IMG/VR virus record: IMGVR_UViG_3300028027_000121
Span: 1 to 37,947 of that record
Length of the DNA stretch: 37,947 bases
Source: a virus
Taxonomy: Duplodnaviria > Caudoviricetes
Direction: 5' to 3' (one strand)
Positions within the stretch are counted from its first letter, which is position 1; each line of letters starts with the position of its first letter. Below the pieces are notes generated by a model. That model saw nothing but the letters and a program-made list of their open reading frames with translations. It was not told the origin of the DNA and did not search any database. Positions 2,203 through 31,408 of the stretch are shown in pieces. A program made the translations under genes and the position numbers.

Positions 2203-2493
2203 TTGGCACGGCTCTTGCTTCATTCAATCTCAATACGGCGAGTCGGTCAAACGGCGAGTCGGTCAAGCTTGGCACAGCGATTGCAATGTCAAACTTGAGC
2301 AAGGCGAGTCGGTCAAACGGCAAGCCGACTAGACAAAGTGTTGGCATAGCGATTGCAACATCAAATTTGAGCATGACGCTCTAAACATTGTGAGGTTTTA
2401 TGTTTTATCTACTTGGCTTCATTGTTGCATCGTATGTTTTTGCGGTTATGTTTGATGAGATTTTCTAGTTTAGGACTTGGCATGATTGTTGAA
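2203..2493 (+). promoter_or_regulatory. five tandem sigma54 -24/-12 promoter elements
   Basis: TTGGCACGGCTCTTGCT (2203), TTGGCACAGCGATTGCA (2269), TTGGCATAGCGATTGCA (2341), TTGGCTTCATTGTTGCA (2413), TTGGCATGATTGTTGAA (2477, GA instead of GC); spacing 66/72/72/64 bp. Confidence 0.85.
2235..2320 (+). repeat. direct repeat (AC)GGCGAGTCGGTCAA x3
   Basis: exact 16-mers at 2235-2250 and 2251-2266; 14-bp core again at 2303-2316. Confidence 0.9.
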
Positions 2494-2538: not shown

Positions 2539-2805
2539 ATGATTTTAAGTAAGGAAAAGAAACAAGAATTGTTGATTGCTAAATTAAGAAAGCAAGAAAT
2601 TGAGCGAAAAGTTAAGGCTCAAAAAATGCAATCTTCTGGGTATATCGAATCCCAACACGCTGTTCTTACTAAAGAAACAAGGCTTGTAAACAATGGACAT
2701 TTTATGAAATCGGGCAATCAACTAGAGCTTGATTTCTTAAGAGCAAGAAAGCTTAAGATTATGCAAGAAAAAACCACTAAGATTATCCTAGTAAAAAAAG
2801 TCTAA
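2539..2805 (+). CDS. basic hypothetical protein, first gene after the sigma54 battery
   Basis: AAGGGG SD before ATG 2539; Lys-rich 88 aa. Confidence 0.7.
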   Translation: MILSKEKKQELLIAKLRKQEIERKVKAQKMQSSGYIESQHAVLTKETRLVNNGHFMKSGNQLELDFLRARKLKIMQEKTTKIILVKKV

Positions 2806-2833
2806 GGATAGGGGGGGGGGTGAAATCCCTCCC

Positions 2834-2892
2834 ACGTTTTAAAACTGCCTATGTCGGTCACAAGCCCGAATGAAAAAAGTTGAGTGAAACGT
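2834..2892 (+). ncRNA. twister ribozyme (type P1)
   Basis: P1 ACGTTT/AAACGT; U2840^A2841-A cleavage strand; P2 AACT/AGTT; GCC...TCGGTCACAAGCCCGA (P4 TCGG/CCGA); GAGTG; pseudoknots GCC:GGT and CAC:GTG. Confidence 0.9.
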
Positions 2893-3156
2893 CCTATAAT
2901 CAAACGGAAATCGTCCCCAATATAGGGGGCGTGAATGGTGTGAAGAGTATCGTATTGAACTACGAGGCTACGAGGCTACCATTTTCACCCGACAAAACAA
3001 ATAGCAATATCTGTAGAGTCGTGGGCTAAATAAAATCCTAATAAGAACAGCACGTTACATAAAGGGATTTCTATTTAAAGATCTGACTCTGACACGGGAG
3101 TGAAGGGGAAGGAAAAGGAACGAGTCTATAGTTGGGATATAAGCCCGACTGTAGAC

Positions 3157-3209
3157 TTCCCTCTTAAGGTATTAGCCTTAACTGATGAGTTCAAAAGAAC
3201 GAAAGGGAA
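3157..3209 (+). ncRNA. hammerhead ribozyme (type III)
   Basis: stem III TTCCC/GGGAA, NUH = CUC (cleavage after C3163), stem I TTAAGG/CCTTAA, core CTGATGA, stem II GTTC-AAAA-GAAC, GAAA. Confidence 0.92.
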
Positions 3210-3305
3210 TTATGAGAATATTGGTAACAGTATCTTTATTTATATTTCTAACATTTACCTTGGTGTTATCGGTTTTCTTTACACCAAACTACAAAAAGGG
3301 ATTAC

Positions 3306-3530
3306 ATGAATCAGGCAAAATTTTATCGCAACGCTTCGCAAGTAAGAAAACATTTTATCCTTAAGAAAATTGATCGTATTGATATTAAGATTGAAAAGTT
3401 TCTCAAGGTTAATAATTTTATCAAGGCTGAAGAGGCTGAGAAAGAATTGTATAGACTTGAGTGTGAACTATTAAAGAACTATGATGTCAATGAGTTGAAT
3501 GAATTATTTATGGAAAGTTACCCAGCTTAA
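3306..3530 (+). CDS. hypothetical protein
   Basis: ORF with AAGGG SD, in a tightly packed run. Confidence 0.65.
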   Translation: MNQAKFYRNASQVRKHFILKKIDRIDIKIEKFLKVNNFIKAEEAEKELYRLECELLKNYDVNELNELFMESYPA

Positions 3531-3736: not shown

Positions 3737-3938
3737 GAAAATTTTCCCTAAGCCTGTGCCTAGACTAACTACTGAAAGCTCTAAGCTACTAGGAAAGAAC
3801 TCTAATAAGGTAGGGCGTGAGGCTAACCTAGCGGGTATTTATTACTCTAATAATCCTGTAAACAAATTAACACCGCAACAAATGAAACAATTAGAAAGTC
3901 TTAAGAAACAATTACAAGTCCTTAAACAAAAACAATAG
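3720..3938 (+). CDS. hypothetical basic protein
   Basis: GAGG SD; overlaps previous gene. Confidence 0.65.
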   Translation: MAKSRKKIFPKPVPRLTTESSKLLGKNSNKVGREANLAGIYYSNNPVNKLTPQQMKQLESLKKQLQVLKQKQ

Positions 3939-4212: not shown

Positions 4213-4527
4213 GTGAGAACAATTACATTAATACAATTTCATAATCATACAGAAGATTCGGACGATAGATCTGGTAGGTCAATGATAGGTAAATGGTTCA
4301 TATTAGATGACGAAGATGCGGAGAATGAATTTTATGATGGAGATGATGACGATGGTGATTCTATCTACATTGATAAGCCTTGCGTATCCTATTTCGATAG
4401 CTTCGATGATTACTTAGCAGATGATAATCGTGGGTATATGGTTAGAAGGAATTTAAAATATACCCTGATAAGTATGGACGTTAATTTTGATGAGGAAAAT
4501 GATAATATTAATTGGAATATAGCATAG
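4213..4527 (+). CDS. acidic hypothetical protein
   Basis: in-frame GTG 7 nt after AGGAG is a better start than 4069; Asp-rich. Confidence 0.6.
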   Translation: MRTITLIQFHNHTEDSDDRSGRSMIGKWFILDDEDAENEFYDGDDDDGDSIYIDKPCVSYFDSFDDYLADDNRGYMVRRNLKYTLISMDVNFDEENDNINWNIA

Positions 4528-4535
4528 GAGTAAAC

Positions 4536-5984
4536 ATGAAAACAATTGGCGTAGGCTCTCTAGTTAAAATTAATCCTGAGATTTTTGGTGAGACGTGTGA
4601 CCCTCAACAAATGTATGGGTCATTAGGTTACATTGGTATATTTAAAAATGCTATCTGGAAAGTAATCAGTATATCATCTGACTCTCACCGAGGTATGTGT
4701 GCATGGGTAAGTCTTACTAATGCTGAAGAACTAATGAAAGATTTGAAGGGTGTTAAGAGTGTCACCAGTGAGGGGCAAGCATTTATTCTACTAGATGATT
4801 TGGTTCATGCTAATACAAAGACAACACTCAATTATGTTTTAAGTAGCACAGTTAAAAATAAAACTCAAATGATTGCCGACTTGTTTGAGGATAGAAGAAA
4901 GCTTAAGGCTCAAGGCTTGTCACGTATTCAACCTGAGATGGTTGCTAACTGGAAACAAATTAGAATCCTTAGAGGTGAACTTAAGGGAACTATCCCTCTA
5001 GTTGGAGAGGCAAGTGTGTATCTTCCTAAGCAACGCATCACTATTAAATTAGATCCTTCCGAAGTGCCTGATGAATCGGATGAATCAATTGCATCATTTA
5101 AAAGATTGTTGGTTGGTAAGCTTAGAATCTTACGATTGAAAAATAGAGTTAATGCTTCAGACTATAATGCGTTTGGAACTAATGTTAAATACTGCGGCGG
5201 GACATTCGTTAATTCTGGGGAATTACTTGAGGCTTTTGAGGCAAGCCTTACTGAGTCATTAAATGAGTACAAGAAACCTACTGACCCTAATGCTAACTAT
5301 GTAGGCGTAGAGGTTGAGTTTATTTATTCTGGTAACGATAAGGATTTGCGTCGTCTATTAATTGAGAAACGTCTACATAAAAACATTCGAGTAGAGAGTG
5401 ATGGTTCTTTGCGTGCTTGTCATAATAGTGGGTATGGTACTGCTGAGTTACAGATCATTGCAAAAACTACTGAGTTAGAAAGTGTAATGAGTAGACTTGA
5501 GACTGTATTAAATCACCCATTGATTGACGGATATACTAACCGATCTTGTGGAACACACGTCCATCTTGATATGAGAAATCGAGATTACATTTCTTGCTTT
5601 AGAAATCTAGTAAGAGTTCAGGATATTTTACGAGGTGCCCAGCCTATCGGACGATTAAAGAATACTCATTGTAAGCCTAACAAGTCTGACGAGTTTGGTA
5701 ATGAGAATAATAGATATTTAGTTGTGAATCCTAACTCATACGAGAAACATACAACAATTGAGGTTCGTATTCATGAGGGGACTGTAGATGTTAAGGGTAT
5801 TGTAAACTGGACTATGTTTCTTGATTCGATTGCATCATGTAATGTTGAGATTCCTGTAAACAAATTTAGAACGGCAAGGGAATTAGTCGCGGCCACCAAT
5901 ATTTTAATTCCTGCTGATTCTCTGAGTTATGTAGACTCTCGTATTGAAAAATTCCAATCTGTAACAATTGCTCACGTATGTTAG
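4536..5984 (+). CDS. COOH-NH2 ligase (amidoligase_2 family, glutamine-synthetase-like fold) with long N-terminal extension
   Basis: GVEVEF, DGSL, ELQ, SCGTHVHL, RY, TIEVRIHEGT motifs; AGGAG before ATG 4536. Confidence 0.85.
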   Translation: MKTIGVGSLVKINPEIFGETCDPQQMYGSLGYIGIFKNAIWKVISISSDSHRGMCAWVSLTNAEELMKDLKGVKSVTSEGQAFILLDDLVHANTKTTLNYVLSSTVKNKTQMIADLFEDRRKLKAQGLSRIQPEMVANWKQIRILRGELKGTIPLVGEASVYLPKQRITIKLDPSEVPDESDESIASFKRLLVGKLRILRLKNRVNASDYNAFGTNVKYCGGTFVNSGELLEAFEASLTESLNEYKKPTDPNANYVGVEVEFIYSGNDKDLRRLLIEKRLHKNIRVESDGSLRACHNSGYGTAELQIIAKTTELESVMSRLETVLNHPLIDGYTNRSCGTHVHLDMRNRDYISCFRNLVRVQDILRGAQPIGRLKNTHCKPNKSDEFGNENNRYLVVNPNSYEKHTTIEVRIHEGTVDVKGIVNWTMFLDSIASCNVEIPVNKFRTARELVAATNILIPADSLSYVDSRIEKFQSVTIAHVC

Positions 5985-6244
5985 TGCCATACTTTTATTT
6001 TAAGATTGGAGACAATATAGAAATAATGCAGTTACACAATACAATGATTAAATTCCGTACTGAGGAGGTTGACGTGGATGGGACTACAATTTATATAAAA
6101 TCAGTTGAGGAACCAGAGTTTAGTTACAATGATTTGTATTGTAACGGGACAACTAAATCTAAAAATTATAGGTTCATTGAGGTTGTTGGATGGGGCGAAA
6201 GATATTGTGCAGCTCTTAAAATTTTGAATCAAAGGACTAACTAA
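5978..6244 (+). CDS. hypothetical protein
   Basis: overlaps both neighbours (translational coupling). Confidence 0.6.
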   Translation: MLVPYFYFKIGDNIEIMQLHNTMIKFRTEEVDVDGTTIYIKSVEEPEFSYNDLYCNGTTKSKNYRFIEVVGWGERYCAALKILNQRTN

Positions 6245-7473
6245 TGTGTAAACTATTACTAATGACTGGTATCACTGAACCTTTAGTGGCAAAAGAATTT
6301 ATGTCTAGGATTAGTATCCCTATGTCTCGATCAAATCGAGATGGTATAGGTTATACTGCGGTAAAGTCTGACGGAAGTTTGTTCTCTGAGCGTTGGCATA
6401 ACAATGAATCATTTATGGAATACAATTCTGTAATGGTTCCTGCAATTGCTAATGAGTTAATTGCTTACAAGAATAGATTACCCTATGGTGCATTGCATAC
6501 TAACTACGATCAACGTGGTGATATTGACATGGGTGATATGACTTCTGTTACAATGCACACTAGGTTTGCTACTTGTGGTAAAGAGTTTGCTAATACTCAT
6601 CCATTTATCTTTGAAGATACTTCTCTAGTTCATAACGGAACAATTCGTAACGCCGATAAGTTAAATGTAAATAAGATTAGCACTTGCGATAGTGAGGCTG
6701 CATTACAAACATATCTTAACAGTGGAGTACCCCTTGAAACTAATAAAGCTAAGGGATGGCTTGATATGCTTAATGGCTCATGGGCTTTTGGTATTATTAG
6801 TAGAGATTCTAATAATAAGAGGATTCTTGATGTTGTGCGGGGAACGAGTTCGTTATTCCATTCTCAAGTTGAGGGACTGGGTAGTGTCTTTGTTACTGAC
6901 AAAGATGATCTTATCTCTATTGCTAAGGATATGTCTCTTAATTTGTTAACAGAACCTACTCTATTAAATATGGATTCAATGTTTAGATTTGATGCAATCA
7001 GCGGCGAGCTGCTTGAAACGATTGATATTAAGCCTGCTAAGGTATTCGTCAACCCTCATTATAATACAAGTTACAACTATATGGAGTCTAACTATCAGAG
7101 TGGGAAGGCTGGGATTAGTAGTCAGTCAACTCCCTTTAGCAAATCTACTGAGATGAGTAAGAAAGATGTTGAGTACAACAATCAATTGCTAATGTGTAGC
7201 ATGGATAATTCAGATGTATTCCCTGACTTGGTAGATGCAAAAGGACGCATTGATTTCCGTAAGGTTAAGAAGTATTGCGAGACTGAATCAGAGGCCTTCA
7301 TTGATAGACTAGATGTATTTGATATTGTATACAATAAAAATTACACTTGTGATTATGAATCTTTGCCTGAAGATTTAAAAGAGTATGTTAGAGAGACTGA
7401 CTTCATGAGAGGATTCAAAGAAGCTCGACAACTTATTGCTGAATTATGTAATGTAAAAACAATAGCGAGGTAA
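6244..7473 (+). CDS. class II (Ntn) glutamine amidotransferase
   Basis: N-terminal Met-Cys, DGIG, HTRFAT, HPF, HNG, CDSE. Confidence 0.9.
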   Translation: MCKLLLMTGITEPLVAKEFMSRISIPMSRSNRDGIGYTAVKSDGSLFSERWHNNESFMEYNSVMVPAIANELIAYKNRLPYGALHTNYDQRGDIDMGDMTSVTMHTRFATCGKEFANTHPFIFEDTSLVHNGTIRNADKLNVNKISTCDSEAALQTYLNSGVPLETNKAKGWLDMLNGSWAFGIISRDSNNKRILDVVRGTSSLFHSQVEGLGSVFVTDKDDLISIAKDMSLNLLTEPTLLNMDSMFRFDAISGELLETIDIKPAKVFVNPHYNTSYNYMESNYQSGKAGISSQSTPFSKSTEMSKKDVEYNNQLLMCSMDNSDVFPDLVDAKGRIDFRKVKKYCETESEAFIDRLDVFDIVYNKNYTCDYESLPEDLKEYVRETDFMRGFKEARQLIAELCNVKTIAR

Positions 7474-7474
7474 T

Positions 7475-7642
7475 ATGACTGTTCTACAATTTGGACATAC
7501 TATGTCAGCTTACGGAGGTGCAATTATAGGTCAGTTTGCAAAAGTTAAGCACGGAACAGCTTTTTGTAGGGATGGACAATACCTACATATTAATTTAAAT
7601 AGTGATAAATATTTTACTACGTTTAGACTGAGGTTTGTATGA
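7475..7642 (+). CDS. 55-aa protein, paralog of 7639-7821 (not in ORF track)
   Basis: GAGG SD; MTVLQFGHTMSAYGGAIIGQFA...KYFTTFRLRFV; ATGA overlap with next gene. Confidence 0.75.
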   Translation: MTVLQFGHTMSAYGGAIIGQFAKVKHGTAFCRDGQYLHINLNSDKYFTTFRLRFV

Positions 7643-7821
7643 GAGTTGTACAATTCGGACTTGCTATGAGTACATTTGGAAAAAACTATGTTGGACTGTT
7701 CGCAACGTACTCTAGTACAGATTCAAGTCCTAAGGCTGTATGTAAAACTGGTGAACATATGAGTTTAGAAACAGGAATAGGTAGAAACTATTTCTCAACA
7801 TTTAGATTGGAGTTTGTATGA
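7639..7821 (+). CDS. 60-aa protein, paralog of 7475-7642
   Basis: MRVVQFGLAMSTFGKNYVGLFA...NYFSTFRLEFV; ATGA overlaps on both sides. Confidence 0.75.
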   Translation: MRVVQFGLAMSTFGKNYVGLFATYSSTDSSPKAVCKTGEHMSLETGIGRNYFSTFRLEFV

Positions 7822-8546
7822 AAGTATTCATTGCCTACTCTGATAGGTCTTGCGTTACAGGTAAAGCCCTTAAGCTTGCACTAGAAGGAAAGAGAAAGAT
7901 AACTCCTAGGAAAGCTAAGTGTGATCTATTTATTAGATGGGGTAATACTGAGGAGTTTGCATCATTGACAAGTGTTAAACAATTAAACTCACTAGAGTCA
8001 GTTAAAAGGACTGTAAACAAATTAGAAATGCTTAGAGCTTTATCTTCTGCTAATGTACCTGTACCTTTATTTGATACAGACATTCAGCTAATTGATTCGC
8101 ATAAAGATGATACTGGTAATTTATATATAAGAAGTAAGTCTGGGATTGTTAGATATGCTAATGATTATAATCCAATCAGTGACTCTTATTATACTAAACC
8201 GATTCCTTTAAAACGTAGAGAGTATCGTGTTCATGTTTTCAATAGTAAGGTTATAGGAATTTACGAAAAGATTCCTAACACTGAGGGTAGACCAGCATTG
8301 TTCAAGTCTGATACGTGCAAGTTCGTTAGGTGTGATCCGCTAATTAGTCGCGTCGACCAGAATGCCCAAGAAATTTGCATTCAGGCTGTAAATGCCCTCG
8401 GTTTATTATGCGGGGGAGTAGATTTAATTAGAGATAAGGATAAGAACTTCTTTGTATGTGAGGTTAACTCAGCTCCAGGATTGAATAGTTCTAATATAAA
8501 AAGGTGGGTAGATGAAATCAAAAATTACTTATGTGTTTCAGTATAA
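7818..8546 (+). CDS. ATP-grasp ligase (RimK-like)
   Basis: IRWG, NKLEML, EYRVHV, GGVDL, EVNSAPG motifs. Confidence 0.88.
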   Translation: MKVFIAYSDRSCVTGKALKLALEGKRKITPRKAKCDLFIRWGNTEEFASLTSVKQLNSLESVKRTVNKLEMLRALSSANVPVPLFDTDIQLIDSHKDDTGNLYIRSKSGIVRYANDYNPISDSYYTKPIPLKRREYRVHVFNSKVIGIYEKIPNTEGRPALFKSDTCKFVRCDPLISRVDQNAQEICIQAVNALGLLCGGVDLIRDKDKNFFVCEVNSAPGLNSSNIKRWVDEIKNYLCVSV

Positions 8547-24511: not shown

Positions 24512-26455
24512 ATGAACAAGGGGGAAGCATTGTTTGTAAATTTAAGATCGGGACTCAACTCAAAGCCGCAGCTAATCAGCACAAAAGAAGACATTAACAA
24601 TTACATCACATCAAGAGATCGTGACTGGTATGTATCTTTGTATAAGTATACAGAAAAACATAAAGCATTGCTAGAAGAAAAGGGTTCTTTAGCGGGAGTT
24701 AAGGATACATTAACTAATGCATTGTACTTTGACTTTGATTCAAAGGACTCTCTTGAGAAAGCACAGAACGATGCTATTGAAGTGGCAAATCGACTTATCA
24801 CAAGAGGCTTTGAAGAAGATGAGATCGGATGTTACTTTACAGGTGGTAAAGGTTTCAGTGTAGAAATTGAAATGAATGAGTATCTTACTCCAGATAAATT
24901 TAAAGCTGTCGTATTTGATATCGCCGGTGACCTAGACACATTTGATGGTGTAGTTAACGATCCTAACAGAATTGTTCGTATCTCCAACACTAAGCATCAA
25001 AACTCTGGGTTATATAAAATCCCTCTAACTCCAGATGAACTAGTTAATTTGACTATTCCTGAAATCAAACTACTAGCTAAAAATCCTAGGGCTAATAGAA
25101 TGTTAACAGTTGCAAACTTGCCTAAAAATATCAAAGATGTTGAAGTGCTTAAAGAAAAAACAATTGATCAGATTGGAAAAGAACTAACTTTTGATATCTC
25201 AACGATTGATATGAAGTCTAGACCTAAAGGTATTGACGAGCCACGGTTTCTTCTATTAAATGGGTTCTTCCGTAGCGGTGAGCGCAATCATTCAATGCTA
25301 TGTCTAGCCTCAACATTGCATAATTTAAACTATCCTCTAGAAGTTACTAGAGGAATGTTAAATGGTGCAGCAGAGCTACAGTCATCCCGTACAGGCGAAT
25401 CAGCTTTCCCTGAGAAAGAAGTAGAGTTGATTATTAATCAAGTATATGGTCCAAACTGGAAAGGTGGACAGTTCACTACTAGAGACCCTAATAACTGGCT
25501 TGCTCAGTATGTTAAGAAGATGGGACTCAACGTAAAGGAAGAGGAAGGACCGGCAACGTTAGACGGTATTAGCGCAGGATTCACTCATTACTTGATGAAC
25601 ATTGAGAAGAATACAGTTAAGACCGGGATTGATGAACTAGATAAGGCTATGCCTATCACTGTTGGTAGTAACATTGGTGTAGTAGCCGCAGCAGGGGCAG
25701 GGAAAACAGCTTTAGCTTTAAAGATTCTAAGACACAACAGCGAACAGGGTATTCCTACTGTATTTGCATCTCTAGACATGCACAGAAACCGATTATTTGA
25801 AAAAGTAATCTACAACATTACTGGATTTAGCAGAGAAGATGTATACGCTAAGTTTAAAGCTGGGAAAGGCAAAGAACTTACTGACCTAGTTAAGAAACAT
25901 TATGGTAATGTATGGTTTTATGATAGAAGTTCTGCCACAGTTGAAGATATTAGAAACTATGTACTACAAGTTGAAGCTACTAGCGGTCAAAAAGTTAAGA
26001 TGGTGATGTTTGATTACTTCGAGCGTATCAGTAGTTCAGTATCTGATGATACCGCATCGTCTAAAATCGTTGCTGGGCAGATTCAAGACTTAGTAAATGA
26101 CCTAGATGTTGCAGCGATCACGTTAGTTCAGCCAAATAAGTTTAGTCTCGGTGGCGGACCTGATACAGAGATTAAATCTTACACTGCAATCAAGGGTAGT
26201 TCGTTTCTTTATCAGTCATTTCGAGGAATTGTTAGTCTCAGTCGCCCATTTTACACTCCAGAGACGAAAGAGATTGATAAATACATGGTAATCAATATCC
26301 TTAAGAACGATTTAGGTGCTCAGGATCGGTTCGAGATGGGATGGGTTGGTAAAACAGGGGAAATCTACACTCTAGAAGACCATGAAAGGGTAGAATTGAA
26401 AGAACTTATGAAGCTTAAGAACGCAACAAAAGAAGAGAAATCAGGATGGGAGTAA
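24512..26455 (+). CDS. AEP primase - SF4 (DnaB-like) helicase fusion
   Basis: YFDFD, FTGGKGF, RIVR, GERN (PriCT-like), TGIDELD, AGAGKT, FDY, LKN motifs. Confidence 0.88.
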   Translation: MNKGEALFVNLRSGLNSKPQLISTKEDINNYITSRDRDWYVSLYKYTEKHKALLEEKGSLAGVKDTLTNALYFDFDSKDSLEKAQNDAIEVANRLITRGFEEDEIGCYFTGGKGFSVEIEMNEYLTPDKFKAVVFDIAGDLDTFDGVVNDPNRIVRISNTKHQNSGLYKIPLTPDELVNLTIPEIKLLAKNPRANRMLTVANLPKNIKDVEVLKEKTIDQIGKELTFDISTIDMKSRPKGIDEPRFLLLNGFFRSGERNHSMLCLASTLHNLNYPLEVTRGMLNGAAELQSSRTGESAFPEKEVELIINQVYGPNWKGGQFTTRDPNNWLAQYVKKMGLNVKEEEGPATLDGISAGFTHYLMNIEKNTVKTGIDELDKAMPITVGSNIGVVAAAGAGKTALALKILRHNSEQGIPTVFASLDMHRNRLFEKVIYNITGFSREDVYAKFKAGKGKELTDLVKKHYGNVWFYDRSSATVEDIRNYVLQVEATSGQKVKMVMFDYFERISSSVSDDTASSKIVAGQIQDLVNDLDVAAITLVQPNKFSLGGGPDTEIKSYTAIKGSSFLYQSFRGIVSLSRPFYTPETKEIDKYMVINILKNDLGAQDRFEMGWVGKTGEIYTLEDHERVELKELMKLKNATKEEKSGWE

Positions 26456-27378
26456 TAAAAACTCCACAAGAGATTAAACAGCTGCTAGATGAGTATGTAA
26501 TTGGACATGAACAATCCAAGAAATACTTATCAGTAGCTGCATATAATCATTATAAACGAATGCGCGGTGATAACATTAAAAAAACTAATGTTATGATCAT
26601 AGGACCTACCGGATGTGGGAAAACATACTTGGTATCATGCTTGTCTGATATTTTACAAGTTCCATTCATCACAATAGATTCGACTCAATTGACCGCATCT
26701 GGTTATGAGGGTAGAAGCGTAGAAGATATTATGACAGAACTGGTTAATGCTTGTGATGGAGATGAAACTTTAGCTGAATACTCAATTATATATTTAGATG
26801 AAATTGATAAGATTAAAAAGAAGAATACAGAAAATGACGTTAATGGATTAGGAGTACAACAAGCATTACTCAAACTAGTTGAAGGTAGTGATGTTGTATA
26901 TACTTCTGAAAGTGGTAACTCCCAAGGCAAAAAACATGATAGTAAAATAAACACTAAAAATATGTTATTTATTTGTTCTGGAGCATTTGTTGATTTACCT
27001 AATATTGAAACAACTTCACTGATTAAATATGGAATGATTCCTGAATTTTTAGGAAGATTTTCTATTATAACAAAATTAAATGAATTAACAATTAGTAATT
27101 TTAAACAAATTTTAAAAGACTCAAAGGGGTCTATTTTAAATTCATTTAGAGAATGGTTTTCAACTGAAGGAATTGAATTAATTGTAACTGAAGATGCTAT
27201 TAATATATTAGCTAATAATGCAATGGCTAAGGGGTTAGGAGCGCGGGGACTACAAGGTAGTCTAGAGGAAGTATTAATAGACGCACAATTTCAAGCCCCT
27301 AGTCTTACAACTAAGCCCAGACAGTTTGTCCTAGATGCTCATGTGATGATTACAAAAAAACCTAAATGGGTTTATTAG
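26446..27378 (+). CDS. clpX: ClpX-like AAA+ ATPase (truncated)
   Basis: LDEYVIG, AAYNHYKR, GPTGCGKT, DEIDKI, GVQQALLKLVEG, PEFLGRF, GARGL. Confidence 0.88.
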   Translation: MGVIKTPQEIKQLLDEYVIGHEQSKKYLSVAAYNHYKRMRGDNIKKTNVMIIGPTGCGKTYLVSCLSDILQVPFITIDSTQLTASGYEGRSVEDIMTELVNACDGDETLAEYSIIYLDEIDKIKKKNTENDVNGLGVQQALLKLVEGSDVVYTSESGNSQGKKHDSKINTKNMLFICSGAFVDLPNIETTSLIKYGMIPEFLGRFSIITKLNELTISNFKQILKDSKGSILNSFREWFSTEGIELIVTEDAINILANNAMAKGLGARGLQGSLEEVLIDAQFQAPSLTTKPRQFVLDAHVMITKKPKWVY

Positions 27379-30424: not shown

Positions 30425-31408
30425 ATGGGCTTTCTTCGTCTAAAATCTAAAATCGCTCTTGACGATATGCCGCTGGGTTCCAGAATTGAGGAATCAGATT
30501 TTTCAACTCTTACCGATTCAGGTAACTTTTGTCAATTTGAATATGTAGAAGAAGATGATCAAATTGAAGGCGAAACTGCCAAACCCGGGATTTTCAGTAT
30601 TGTTAAAACAATGGCTGGACTCAAACTAGAAAAAACAGAATTTACTAAAGATGATGTGTTAAAGGATTTTGTAAACACAAAAGAAGTTACCGACAAGATT
30701 GAAATGTTTTTCCAAGCTATTCCTAAATATGACAAATATGGAATCTTCCCAAAACGAGGAGCTTTACTATTTGGACCTCCAGGAACAGGTAAAACTACGA
30801 TCATTGCCGAGACATGCCGGAAACATACTAGAGAAGGAGACACATTTATCCTTCTATGGCATACTGATAAAATTGAAGCAGGGGATGTAAAAGACTTTGT
30901 TAAGCATTTGAAATATGAAAGTGTGACCAAGATGATTCTAGTTGCCGAAGATATTGGTGGAGTTGAAATTGATCAGGCTAGAATTAGATCAGAGTCAGCG
31001 CTACTAAGTCTATTGGACAATCAAGAGCAAACATTTAAAATCCCTGTTTATATCCTTGCTACTACAAACTATCCAGAAAATTTCATGGGTAACTTAACAA
31101 ATAGACCGAATCGTTTTGATGATAAGATTAGAGTAGGATACCCTAAAGGTGAAGCTAGACAACAGTTATTGAAGTTCTACGATAAAGAAGGACTTGTAGA
31201 TGAAGAAGCTCTATCTCTTATTGCATCTAAGAAATGTGACGAGTTCAGTCCAGCTCACTTAAGAGAAGTAATTATTCGATCAGCTATATATTCAGCATTG
31301 CCAACCTTGACTATTCGTGCTATGATCAAGGAGATTGAAGAGTACCAGAAGGCATTTGCCGAGAAAGGTAACAAACGAACTGGACTAATGATATACGAGG
31401 ATGATTAA
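30425..31408 (+). CDS. AAA+ ATPase
   Basis: GPPGTGKT, AEDI, ATTN, RPNRFD. Confidence 0.88.
   Translation: MGFLRLKSKIALDDMPLGSRIEESDFSTLTDSGNFCQFEYVEEDDQIEGETAKPGIFSIVKTMAGLKLEKTEFTKDDVLKDFVNTKEVTDKIEMFFQAIPKYDKYGIFPKRGALLFGPPGTGKTTIIAETCRKHTREGDTFILLWHTDKIEAGDVKDFVKHLKYESVTKMILVAEDIGGVEIDQARIRSESALLSLLDNQEQTFKIPVYILATTNYPENFMGNLTNRPNRFDDKIRVGYPKGEARQQLLKFYDKEGLVDEEALSLIASKKCDEFSPAHLREVIIRSAIYSALPTLTIRAMIKEIEEYQKAFAEKGNKRTGLMIYEDD

Follow-up and report, generated by a model that had tools for sequence, protein, structure and literature searches.

The abundance of small ribozymes in phages and bacteria is described as an open question in PMC6765202. Among the closest described systems, as presented in the excerpts used, clustered hammerhead ribozymes flanking genes in prophages were reported by Perreault et al. 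2011 (PMC3088659), maturation without host nucleases has been proposed for theta ribozymes by Kienbeck et al. 2024 (PMC10879173), and the Tornado system uses an 18-bp stem to bring RNA ends together (bioRxiv 10.1101/2023.07.11.548538). Here, in the window (the whole stretch of 37,947 nucleotides that was analysed, which is the virus record itself, has a completeness of about 44% and carries phage replication genes), two ribozymes flank an uncatalogued multi-hairpin RNA, and we lean towards a reading in which this RNA is cut from an early transcript and is likely to be linear, end-protected and protein-binding.

At Rfam gathering scores (67.2 for RF03160 and 48.5 for RF00008) no family was reported for the whole window, because both ribozymes score under these thresholds; when Rfam was scanned by E-value, the twister-P1 model RF03160 matched positions 2836-2890 (46.4 bits, E 1.4e-8) and the Hammerhead_3 model RF00008 matched 3156-3210 (35.2 bits, E 2.9e-5). 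An earlier note on this DNA, which had proposed a comparison with these models, had read a complete P1 twister at 2834-2892 and a complete type III hammerhead at 3157-3209, and both descriptions hold. The P1 helix of the twister comprises 6 bp in context (2834-2839/2887-2892), P2 and P4 are also formed, the P3 hairpin is shrunk to a short linker, and both pseudoknots (T1 2859-2861/2884-2886 and T2 2847-2848/2864-2865) and the cut site U2840-A2841-A2842 are present. All 17 twister pairs checked are Watson-Crick in both the window and its close relative L001, 5 of the 17 having changed on both sides, while in two strain contigs (X8 and X11) the change G2886A breaks one T1 pair, with no partner change among the 40 of 92 differences listed. 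Stem III of the hammerhead is formed by 3158-3162/3204-3208, with C-U-C ahead of the cut after C3163 and with stems I and II and the core intact, and a type III hammerhead with an intact core, an N-U-H triplet, stems I-III and an open stem III is found in all five complete loci described below. With our descriptors the window motifs score 16 (hammerhead) and 14 (twister), and 20 dinucleotide shuffles of the window, both strands, gave no hammerhead of at least 14 and 2 twisters of at least 13. Both ribozymes are taken as confirmed, on sequence grounds, as real and at their predicted positions, and their cut sites and end chemistry are predicted from the class consensus. Twister and hammerhead cuts leave a 5'-OH and a 2',3'-cyclic phosphate; the coordinates, predicted cuts and length of the 323-nt fragment that the earlier note had expected between them stand, and the G-run hairpin which it had placed before the twister (2814-2833) does form (Table 1).

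Table 1. Features of the ribozyme locus and its flanks (positions in the window).
Feature	Position	Strand	Basis or remark
Three tandem sigma-54-type (-24/-12) promoter-like sites	2204-2219, 2270-2285, 2342-2357	+	Scan with at most 1 mismatch
Gene for small basic helical protein, 88 aa, family not matched	2539..2805	+	Directly upstream of the cassette
G-run hairpin, would end the upstream mRNA fragment	2813..2833	+	Folding; same hairpin, other letters, in L001
Type P1 twister ribozyme	2834..2892	+	Rfam RF03160; predicted cut 2840/2841
Predicted excised RNA, 323 nt, 5'-OH and 2',3'-cyclic phosphate	2841..3163	+	Ribozyme cuts; fold z -4.53
Conserved core of the RNA family	2897..3114	+	57.8 bits, E 5.5e-14, model from L014 and L167 only
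Hairpin H1, A-rich loop	2912..2931	+	Two compensatory changes in strain contigs
Hairpin H2, kink-turn-like internal loop 2943-2948 / 2967-2975	2936..2981	+	
Hairpin H3, invariant CC:GG base, variable top	2988..3024	+	CC:GG fixed in 4/4
Hairpin H4, length and sequence variable	3027..3077	+	Two-sided change in 5/5 pairs
Hairpin H5, GNRA tetraloop, covarying stem of 3 bp, purine 2x2 internal loop that is conserved	3087..3108	+	
Hairpin H6, 14 bp, near 3' end of excised RNA	3123..3157	+	Hairpin there in 5/5 complete loci
Type III hammerhead ribozyme	3158..3208	+	Rfam RF00008; predicted cut 3163/3164
First downstream ORF, short, hydrophobic	3212..3364	+	Opens run of small genes before amidoligase / amidotransferase / ATP-grasp cluster

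The genes of the cluster 1.3-5.4 kb downstream of the ribozyme cassette (amidoligase, glutamine amidotransferase and ATP-grasp, in a row at 4512-8546) form a clade-wide cluster of peptide-modification type, and a search with the amidoligase yielded 7 viral and 16 metagenome loci, one of which (L019) is the window's own record; most of the metagenome loci may be too short upstream to show the cassette. The cassette set comprises five complete distinct loci (the window, L001, L013, L014 and L163/L167) and one partial locus (L170). L001, whose amidoligase is 97% identical, keeps the twister (38.6 bits to RF03160) and the hammerhead with compensatory changes, around a piece of 474 nt that is hard to align with the window. 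L013 (amidoligase 46% identical) has an orthologous small upstream gene, a type II hammerhead at the 5' side, 438 nt and a type III hammerhead at the 3' side, and L014 (31% identical; L015 and L027 have its sequence) has the same order with 310 nt. L163/L167, found by a 19-letter pattern from the spacer (H5) alone, has the upstream gene and both ribozymes, again type II 5' and type III 3', with 262 nt between, so that the piece between the predicted cuts spans 262-474 nt across the five complete phage sequences. L170, found via the upstream gene, has a type II hammerhead followed by an incomplete RNA, as its contig breaks off after the first part. Two close relatives thus have a twister as the 5' ribozyme and the other four loci a type II hammerhead, and a tree of the upstream protein (L170 left out) needs one change between the two classes, in either direction. 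Because four loci use a type II hammerhead in place of the twister, it is the 5' cut at that spot which these sequences indicate to be conserved, the ribozyme class being exchangeable. Conservation of the ribozyme pair in related phages, a check that the earlier note had proposed, is supported.

Credible matches to the hammerhead and P1-twister classes, the two that the scan covered, are only those around the RNA in four of five records (the window, G001, G003 and G004); G002 has two further type II hammerheads beyond the cassette pair, and G003 has one extra descriptor match without support from the Rfam twister model. More type II hammerheads, some with long stem III insertions, lie at gene boundaries in the early region at L013:3453, L013:6517 and L017:4417, and an exact 33-base inverted match in L013 (1-33 against 1290-1322, in the 3' linker of the cargo) may be an assembly artefact. 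The more distant amidoligase loci L016 (a complete genome), L017 and L018 gave no significant match to the RNA models described below; L016 and L017 nonetheless carry hammerheads. In L016 a 650-nt strongly folded stretch (2660-3370, z -5.0) is enclosed by two type III hammerheads, the first of which has one additional core base, and a type II hammerhead follows at 3843; the stretch holds a 94-codon ORF, which has no detectable homology to the upstream gene and was rejected as its homologue, and a kink-turn-like hairpin (about 3106-3140), gives no Rfam match, and appears from its sequence to be either another kind of cargo or one that has diverged greatly.

The RNA between the ribozymes folds better than its shuffles in all five complete loci (z -3.2 to -4.5, ribozyme remnants included). 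In a structure drawn from two sequences, L014 and L167, each of them forms all 46 pairs, 17 of which carry two-sided changes, compared to 0-2 for slid controls. As a covariance model this structure matched sequences held out of it, with E 5.5e-14 for the window, E 5.1e-15 for L013 and E 6.9e-5 for the partial L170, and gave two fragments only on L001 (E about 0.3). Fitting four sequences to the model gave 26 of 46 pairs with two-sided change (a fit that leans to the model), and the four-sequence model spans L001 across its insertions (E 5e-4) and gives a weak match at the expected place in L016 (E 0.25); the E-values of both custom models are rough, and for H5 the held-out test is not wholly independent, because L167 was retrieved with a pattern that included the window. 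Near-identical strain contigs add to this, in that six of the 13 listed differences in 2841-3163 (from a table in which 40 of 92 rows are listed) combine into three compensatory pairs, one replaces a wobble with a pair and one makes a new pair, H2 having one compensatory and one wobble-to-pair change. The letters that are fixed lie in loops (kink-turn-like, GNRA, A-rich and purine 2x2), the stems vary, and the core has few invariant letters. Compared to what we take to be the kink-turn consensus, the internal loop of H2 fits in the window, L014 and L167 (C-stem, 3-nt bulge, tandem G.A / A.G), even though our automatic kink-turn filter did not return these motifs; L013 departs from the consensus and L001 shows no kink-turn.

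Rfam 15 gave chance-level matches only (E > 1) over the cargo of the window, L001, L013 and L014, the longest ORFs in the cargo (14-49 aa) differ among the loci and none is shared, and there is no tRNA in any of the six related loci or in the window. Likeness to group II intron domain V, RNase P, T-box and SAM-I, compared by eye with what we take to be their motifs, was rejected as geometry or order differs and there is no Rfam match, and a pseudoknot linking the H3 flank to H5 was discarded since not all loci keep it. An antisense role suggested by an 18-nt inverted repeat between the H4 loop and the upstream gene was likewise dropped, as the pairing is not conserved: shuffles reached the pairing in 13 of 300 cases for the window, compared to 271, 189 and 118 of 300 for three others, and a match in L014 (3 of 300) was a low-complexity run elsewhere.

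Judged by these sequences, the structured RNA is a conserved family outside Rfam, restricted to one phage clade, and the earlier claim of a defined non-coding RNA between the ribozymes is borne out, as the spacer covaries and is matched by a model made without it. The earlier note had overlooked two points, the conservation of the spacer as an RNA family in its own right and the exchangeability of the twister. The outcome against which it had warned, namely relatives that keep one ribozyme and a non-conserved spacer, is not what we see: the spacer is conserved and there are two ribozymes in five complete loci. This bears on the plainest alternative, in which independent ribozymes trim the neighbouring mRNAs and the spacer has no function. 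Such an arrangement is known from prophages (PMC3088659), and 120 viral loci share this hammerhead core, mostly with small genes alongside. Against it, compensatory changes preserve the structure of the spacer both among near-identical strains and between phages with amidoligase identities of 31-46%, and this explanation is largely refuted and hardly credible. As a separate observation, a type III/I hammerhead subfamily with a fixed 4-bp stem II (L035-L154) is present in about 140 viral stretches, and in the loci read a hairpin usually lies just 5' of the cut, with small genes between copies.

The RNA is present as a single copy in G002 and G003. No convincing match was found in 100 of the 120 hammerhead-core loci (15 short loci, 1 duplicate and 4 known ones being left out of that scan) or in 86 of 93 loci retrieved by pattern (7 known ones left out), and blastn of the stretch against 50,697 annotated phages gave 4 chance matches of 29 nt. 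A first cargo pattern returned 1 real locus of 10 and the H5 pattern 4 real of 11, one of them new; the H2 and H1 patterns returned only already known loci (4 of 26 and 3 of 54), none of 13 hits of the cargo patterns in prokaryote genomes was real, and L245 (E 0.003) was rejected as a further member on inspection of the locus. Could the core be a catalytic or selfish RNA, either a new ribozyme class or a passenger like GOLLD or ROOL, released by the flanking ribozymes? It is compact, with several helices, tolerates large insertions (in L001 and L013) and lies near amidoligase and amidotransferase genes, and clustering of ribozymes near particular gene classes has been described (PMC5737381, in the part used here); however, it has few invariant letters and sits at one fixed locus in one phage clade, with no copies in those 100 hammerhead and 86 pattern loci and with neither repeats nor a reverse transcriptase seen alongside, and we consider this very unlikely.

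Excision of a functional RNA by both ribozymes is, with good confidence, what the sequences point to. In our proposal a precursor carrying the small basic gene would be cut twice. Compensatory changes in the alignments show that the folds of both ribozymes, as well as the RNA that they enclose, are conserved. From class chemistry, the 5'-OH left by cleavage would lie within a folded ribozyme remnant or at its foot, and the cyclic phosphate 5-8 nt behind a hairpin, and ends folded in this way would resist exonucleases without ligation. The 5' cut would at the same time supply the end of the upstream mRNA, and the 3' cut would free the ribosome-binding site of the next gene. The 5' ribozyme directly follows a stop codon, and the 3' hammerhead has its stem III over a Shine-Dalgarno-like run; as ribozymes after stops and before starts are generic in phages, the bracketing of the RNA may be a by-product, and the readings that the ribozymes serve RNA excision or mRNA punctuation are both compatible with this layout.

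As to the form of the excised RNA, the earlier note had proposed a natural Tornado-like cassette and a possibly circular RNA; in this reading a host RtcB would join the 5'-OH to the cyclic phosphate and the RNA would work as a circle. Such predicted termini are the substrate pair of RtcB (bioRxiv 10.1101/2023.07.11.548538), both cuts are retained when the ribozyme class changes, folding as a circle costs no more than 0.8-6.3 kcal/mol, the last base at the 3' end is mostly unpaired (0.65-1.0), the twister lineage has its first bases unpaired (in a folding model blind to pseudoknots), and RtcB is common in bacteria (10 of 14 control genomes). However, all small ribozymes leave such ends, so their presence is no sign of ligation, and in none of the five RNAs do the ends pair: the first and last 20 nt share 0.00-0.46 expected bp and there is no junction stem. 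As isolated 20-mers the ends do pair at -8 to -11 kcal/mol, but they compete with local hairpins and at places that differ per RNA, and the base that carries the 5'-OH lies at a hairpin foot in each complete type II lineage, three in number (unpaired probability 0.11-0.19). RtcB was found in none of the six phage records (0/5 and 0/1), two of them complete, the PF09414 ligase is found in none of five phages and PF09511 has one match under its cut-off in one of five, and for the clustered phage hammerheads circles were raised and none detected (PMC3088659). No joints were seen in 8 of 21 listed sequencing runs, nor in X20, which is probably DNA, and this speaks neither for nor against expression or circles. 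The circle as working form is thus not retained as the main proposal and is judged improbable, although a host ligase such as RtcB could still act, and the linear RNA is probably the main form. The sub-cut-off match just mentioned is a weak one to the T4 RNA ligase 1 family PF09511 (G001:C1:44354-44530, L172; E 1.7e-4, 60 of 227 positions).

The 3' ribozyme also allows a cis-acting leader, in which the folded RNA would sense a signal and set the formation of hammerhead stem III, and so the ribosome site of the next gene, the excised piece being waste. In all five complete loci the 3' strand of stem III is Shine-Dalgarno-like and lies 3-6 nt before the ATG of the next gene, and in the window stem III competes with an upstream purine run (about 3107-3118), having a marginal probability of 0.04-0.31 in long contexts compared to 0.97 locally, at no cost (0 kcal/mol) when forced in the 2790-3230 fold. 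Kink-turns and GNRA loops, moreover, are common in riboswitches. Nevertheless it is the gene before the RNA that stays constant, the one after the hammerhead varying by lineage. Between core and hammerhead lie H6 and a variable linker, the competing pairing differs between lineages and no riboswitch family matches in Rfam scans of the window, L001, L013 and L014, and a leader of this kind seems to us unlikely, about as much so as the circle or slightly more.

Returning to an RNA freed by excision, its precursor transcript likely starts, going by sequence, at the tandem sigma-54-type sites of Table 1, to which a promoter function would have to be ascribed. With the letters we take to be the sigma-54 (-24/-12) consensus, the window has 6 matches at no more than 1 mismatch compared to 1.05 expected, all inside 1808-2493, which suggests sigma-54-driven phage transcription; they could instead be the binding site of another repeat-bound protein. 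Two of the six point leftward and four rightward, in a 700-bp gap where gene direction switches, and imperfect GC-rich direct repeats (families D3 and D4, 1963-2151) between the leftward and rightward sites are a possible origin or packaging region. The same scan found four such sites in L012, one each in L013, L170 and L017, and none in L014, L167 and L016. Two AAA+ ATPases are encoded elsewhere in the window (26446-27378 and 30425-31408), one of them ClpX-like by PHROG matches, and a phage-borne activator of sigma-54 promoters is conceivable among them.

That conservation falls in the loops and not in the stems suggests protein binding or tertiary folding, and as the loops are fixed, the stems variable and there is no conserved ORF or antisense target, we read the free RNA as a possible scaffold or decoy; a protein-binding role is thereby proposed tentatively, at somewhat under even odds. 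The small basic gene precedes the cassette in all six distinct loci, and in L170 it is still attached to the RNA though a neighbouring gene has moved to the other side, so that its product is the first candidate partner, albeit a doubtful one. Its family has about 24 homologue clusters. The protein has no match among 50,697 annotated phages (in which the amidoligase has only distant ones), no Pfam family common to its members, no Atlas match, and no PDB sequence or fold match (model pTM 0.33), hence no fold support for RNA binding. More speculatively still, yet with a little more credit than that particular partner, the locus may represent a new class of phage RNA gene, matured at both ends by exchangeable ribozymes alone, whose product, as an early ribonucleoprotein with the small basic protein or as a circle made by host RtcB, would take over a host process or shield against one.

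No description of a ribozyme-bracketed phage non-coding RNA of this kind was found in the open literature (titles and abstract openings), and the RNA motif had no match in three supplementary files of PMC10690425 (over 10,000 viral RNA candidates), although it may be among that report's candidates outside those files. It is a new RNA family within a known kind of ribozyme arrangement. For one clade the locus gives a testable answer to why small ribozymes are so frequent, namely that they define both ends of a non-coding RNA gene; the class swap indicates that the cut, not the catalyst, is selected, and a compact structured RNA family with five natural variants is added.

Compared to known systems, as these are set out in the parts of the sources used, the locus resembles Tornado in that two same-strand ribozymes give the piece between them a 5'-OH and a 2',3'-cyclic phosphate (for our locus predicted from class knowledge), but Tornado has its 18-bp end-joining stem, where here there is none in all five RNAs and the RNA keeps most of its 5' ribozyme. 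Retrozymes and viroid-like circular RNAs (PMC6765202) likewise have unit-length RNAs set by ribozyme cuts, using repeated copies of one ribozyme or both polarities, for replication, whereas the locus here belongs to a DNA phage, is single-copy and carries ribozymes of two kinds on the same strand. GOLLD and ROOL (PMC5737381) are also multi-helix, phage-carried non-coding RNAs whose function is open; the RNA here is smaller, is bounded by ribozymes rather than lying near tRNAs, and has no Rfam match. With the theta ribozymes by phage tRNAs (PMC10879173), a cis ribozyme is likewise proposed to mature the end of a functional non-coding RNA, but these are HDV-like and act at the 3' end only, on a tRNA cargo, while here both ends would be set by other classes and the cargo is not a tRNA. 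The clustered hammerheads of prophages (PMC3088659) share several same-strand ribozymes of types II and III predicted to cut a transcript, and for which circles were proposed too and none detected; those hammerheads flank changing genes, whereas the ribozymes here flank a conserved non-coding RNA, with twister and hammerhead exchanged at one position.
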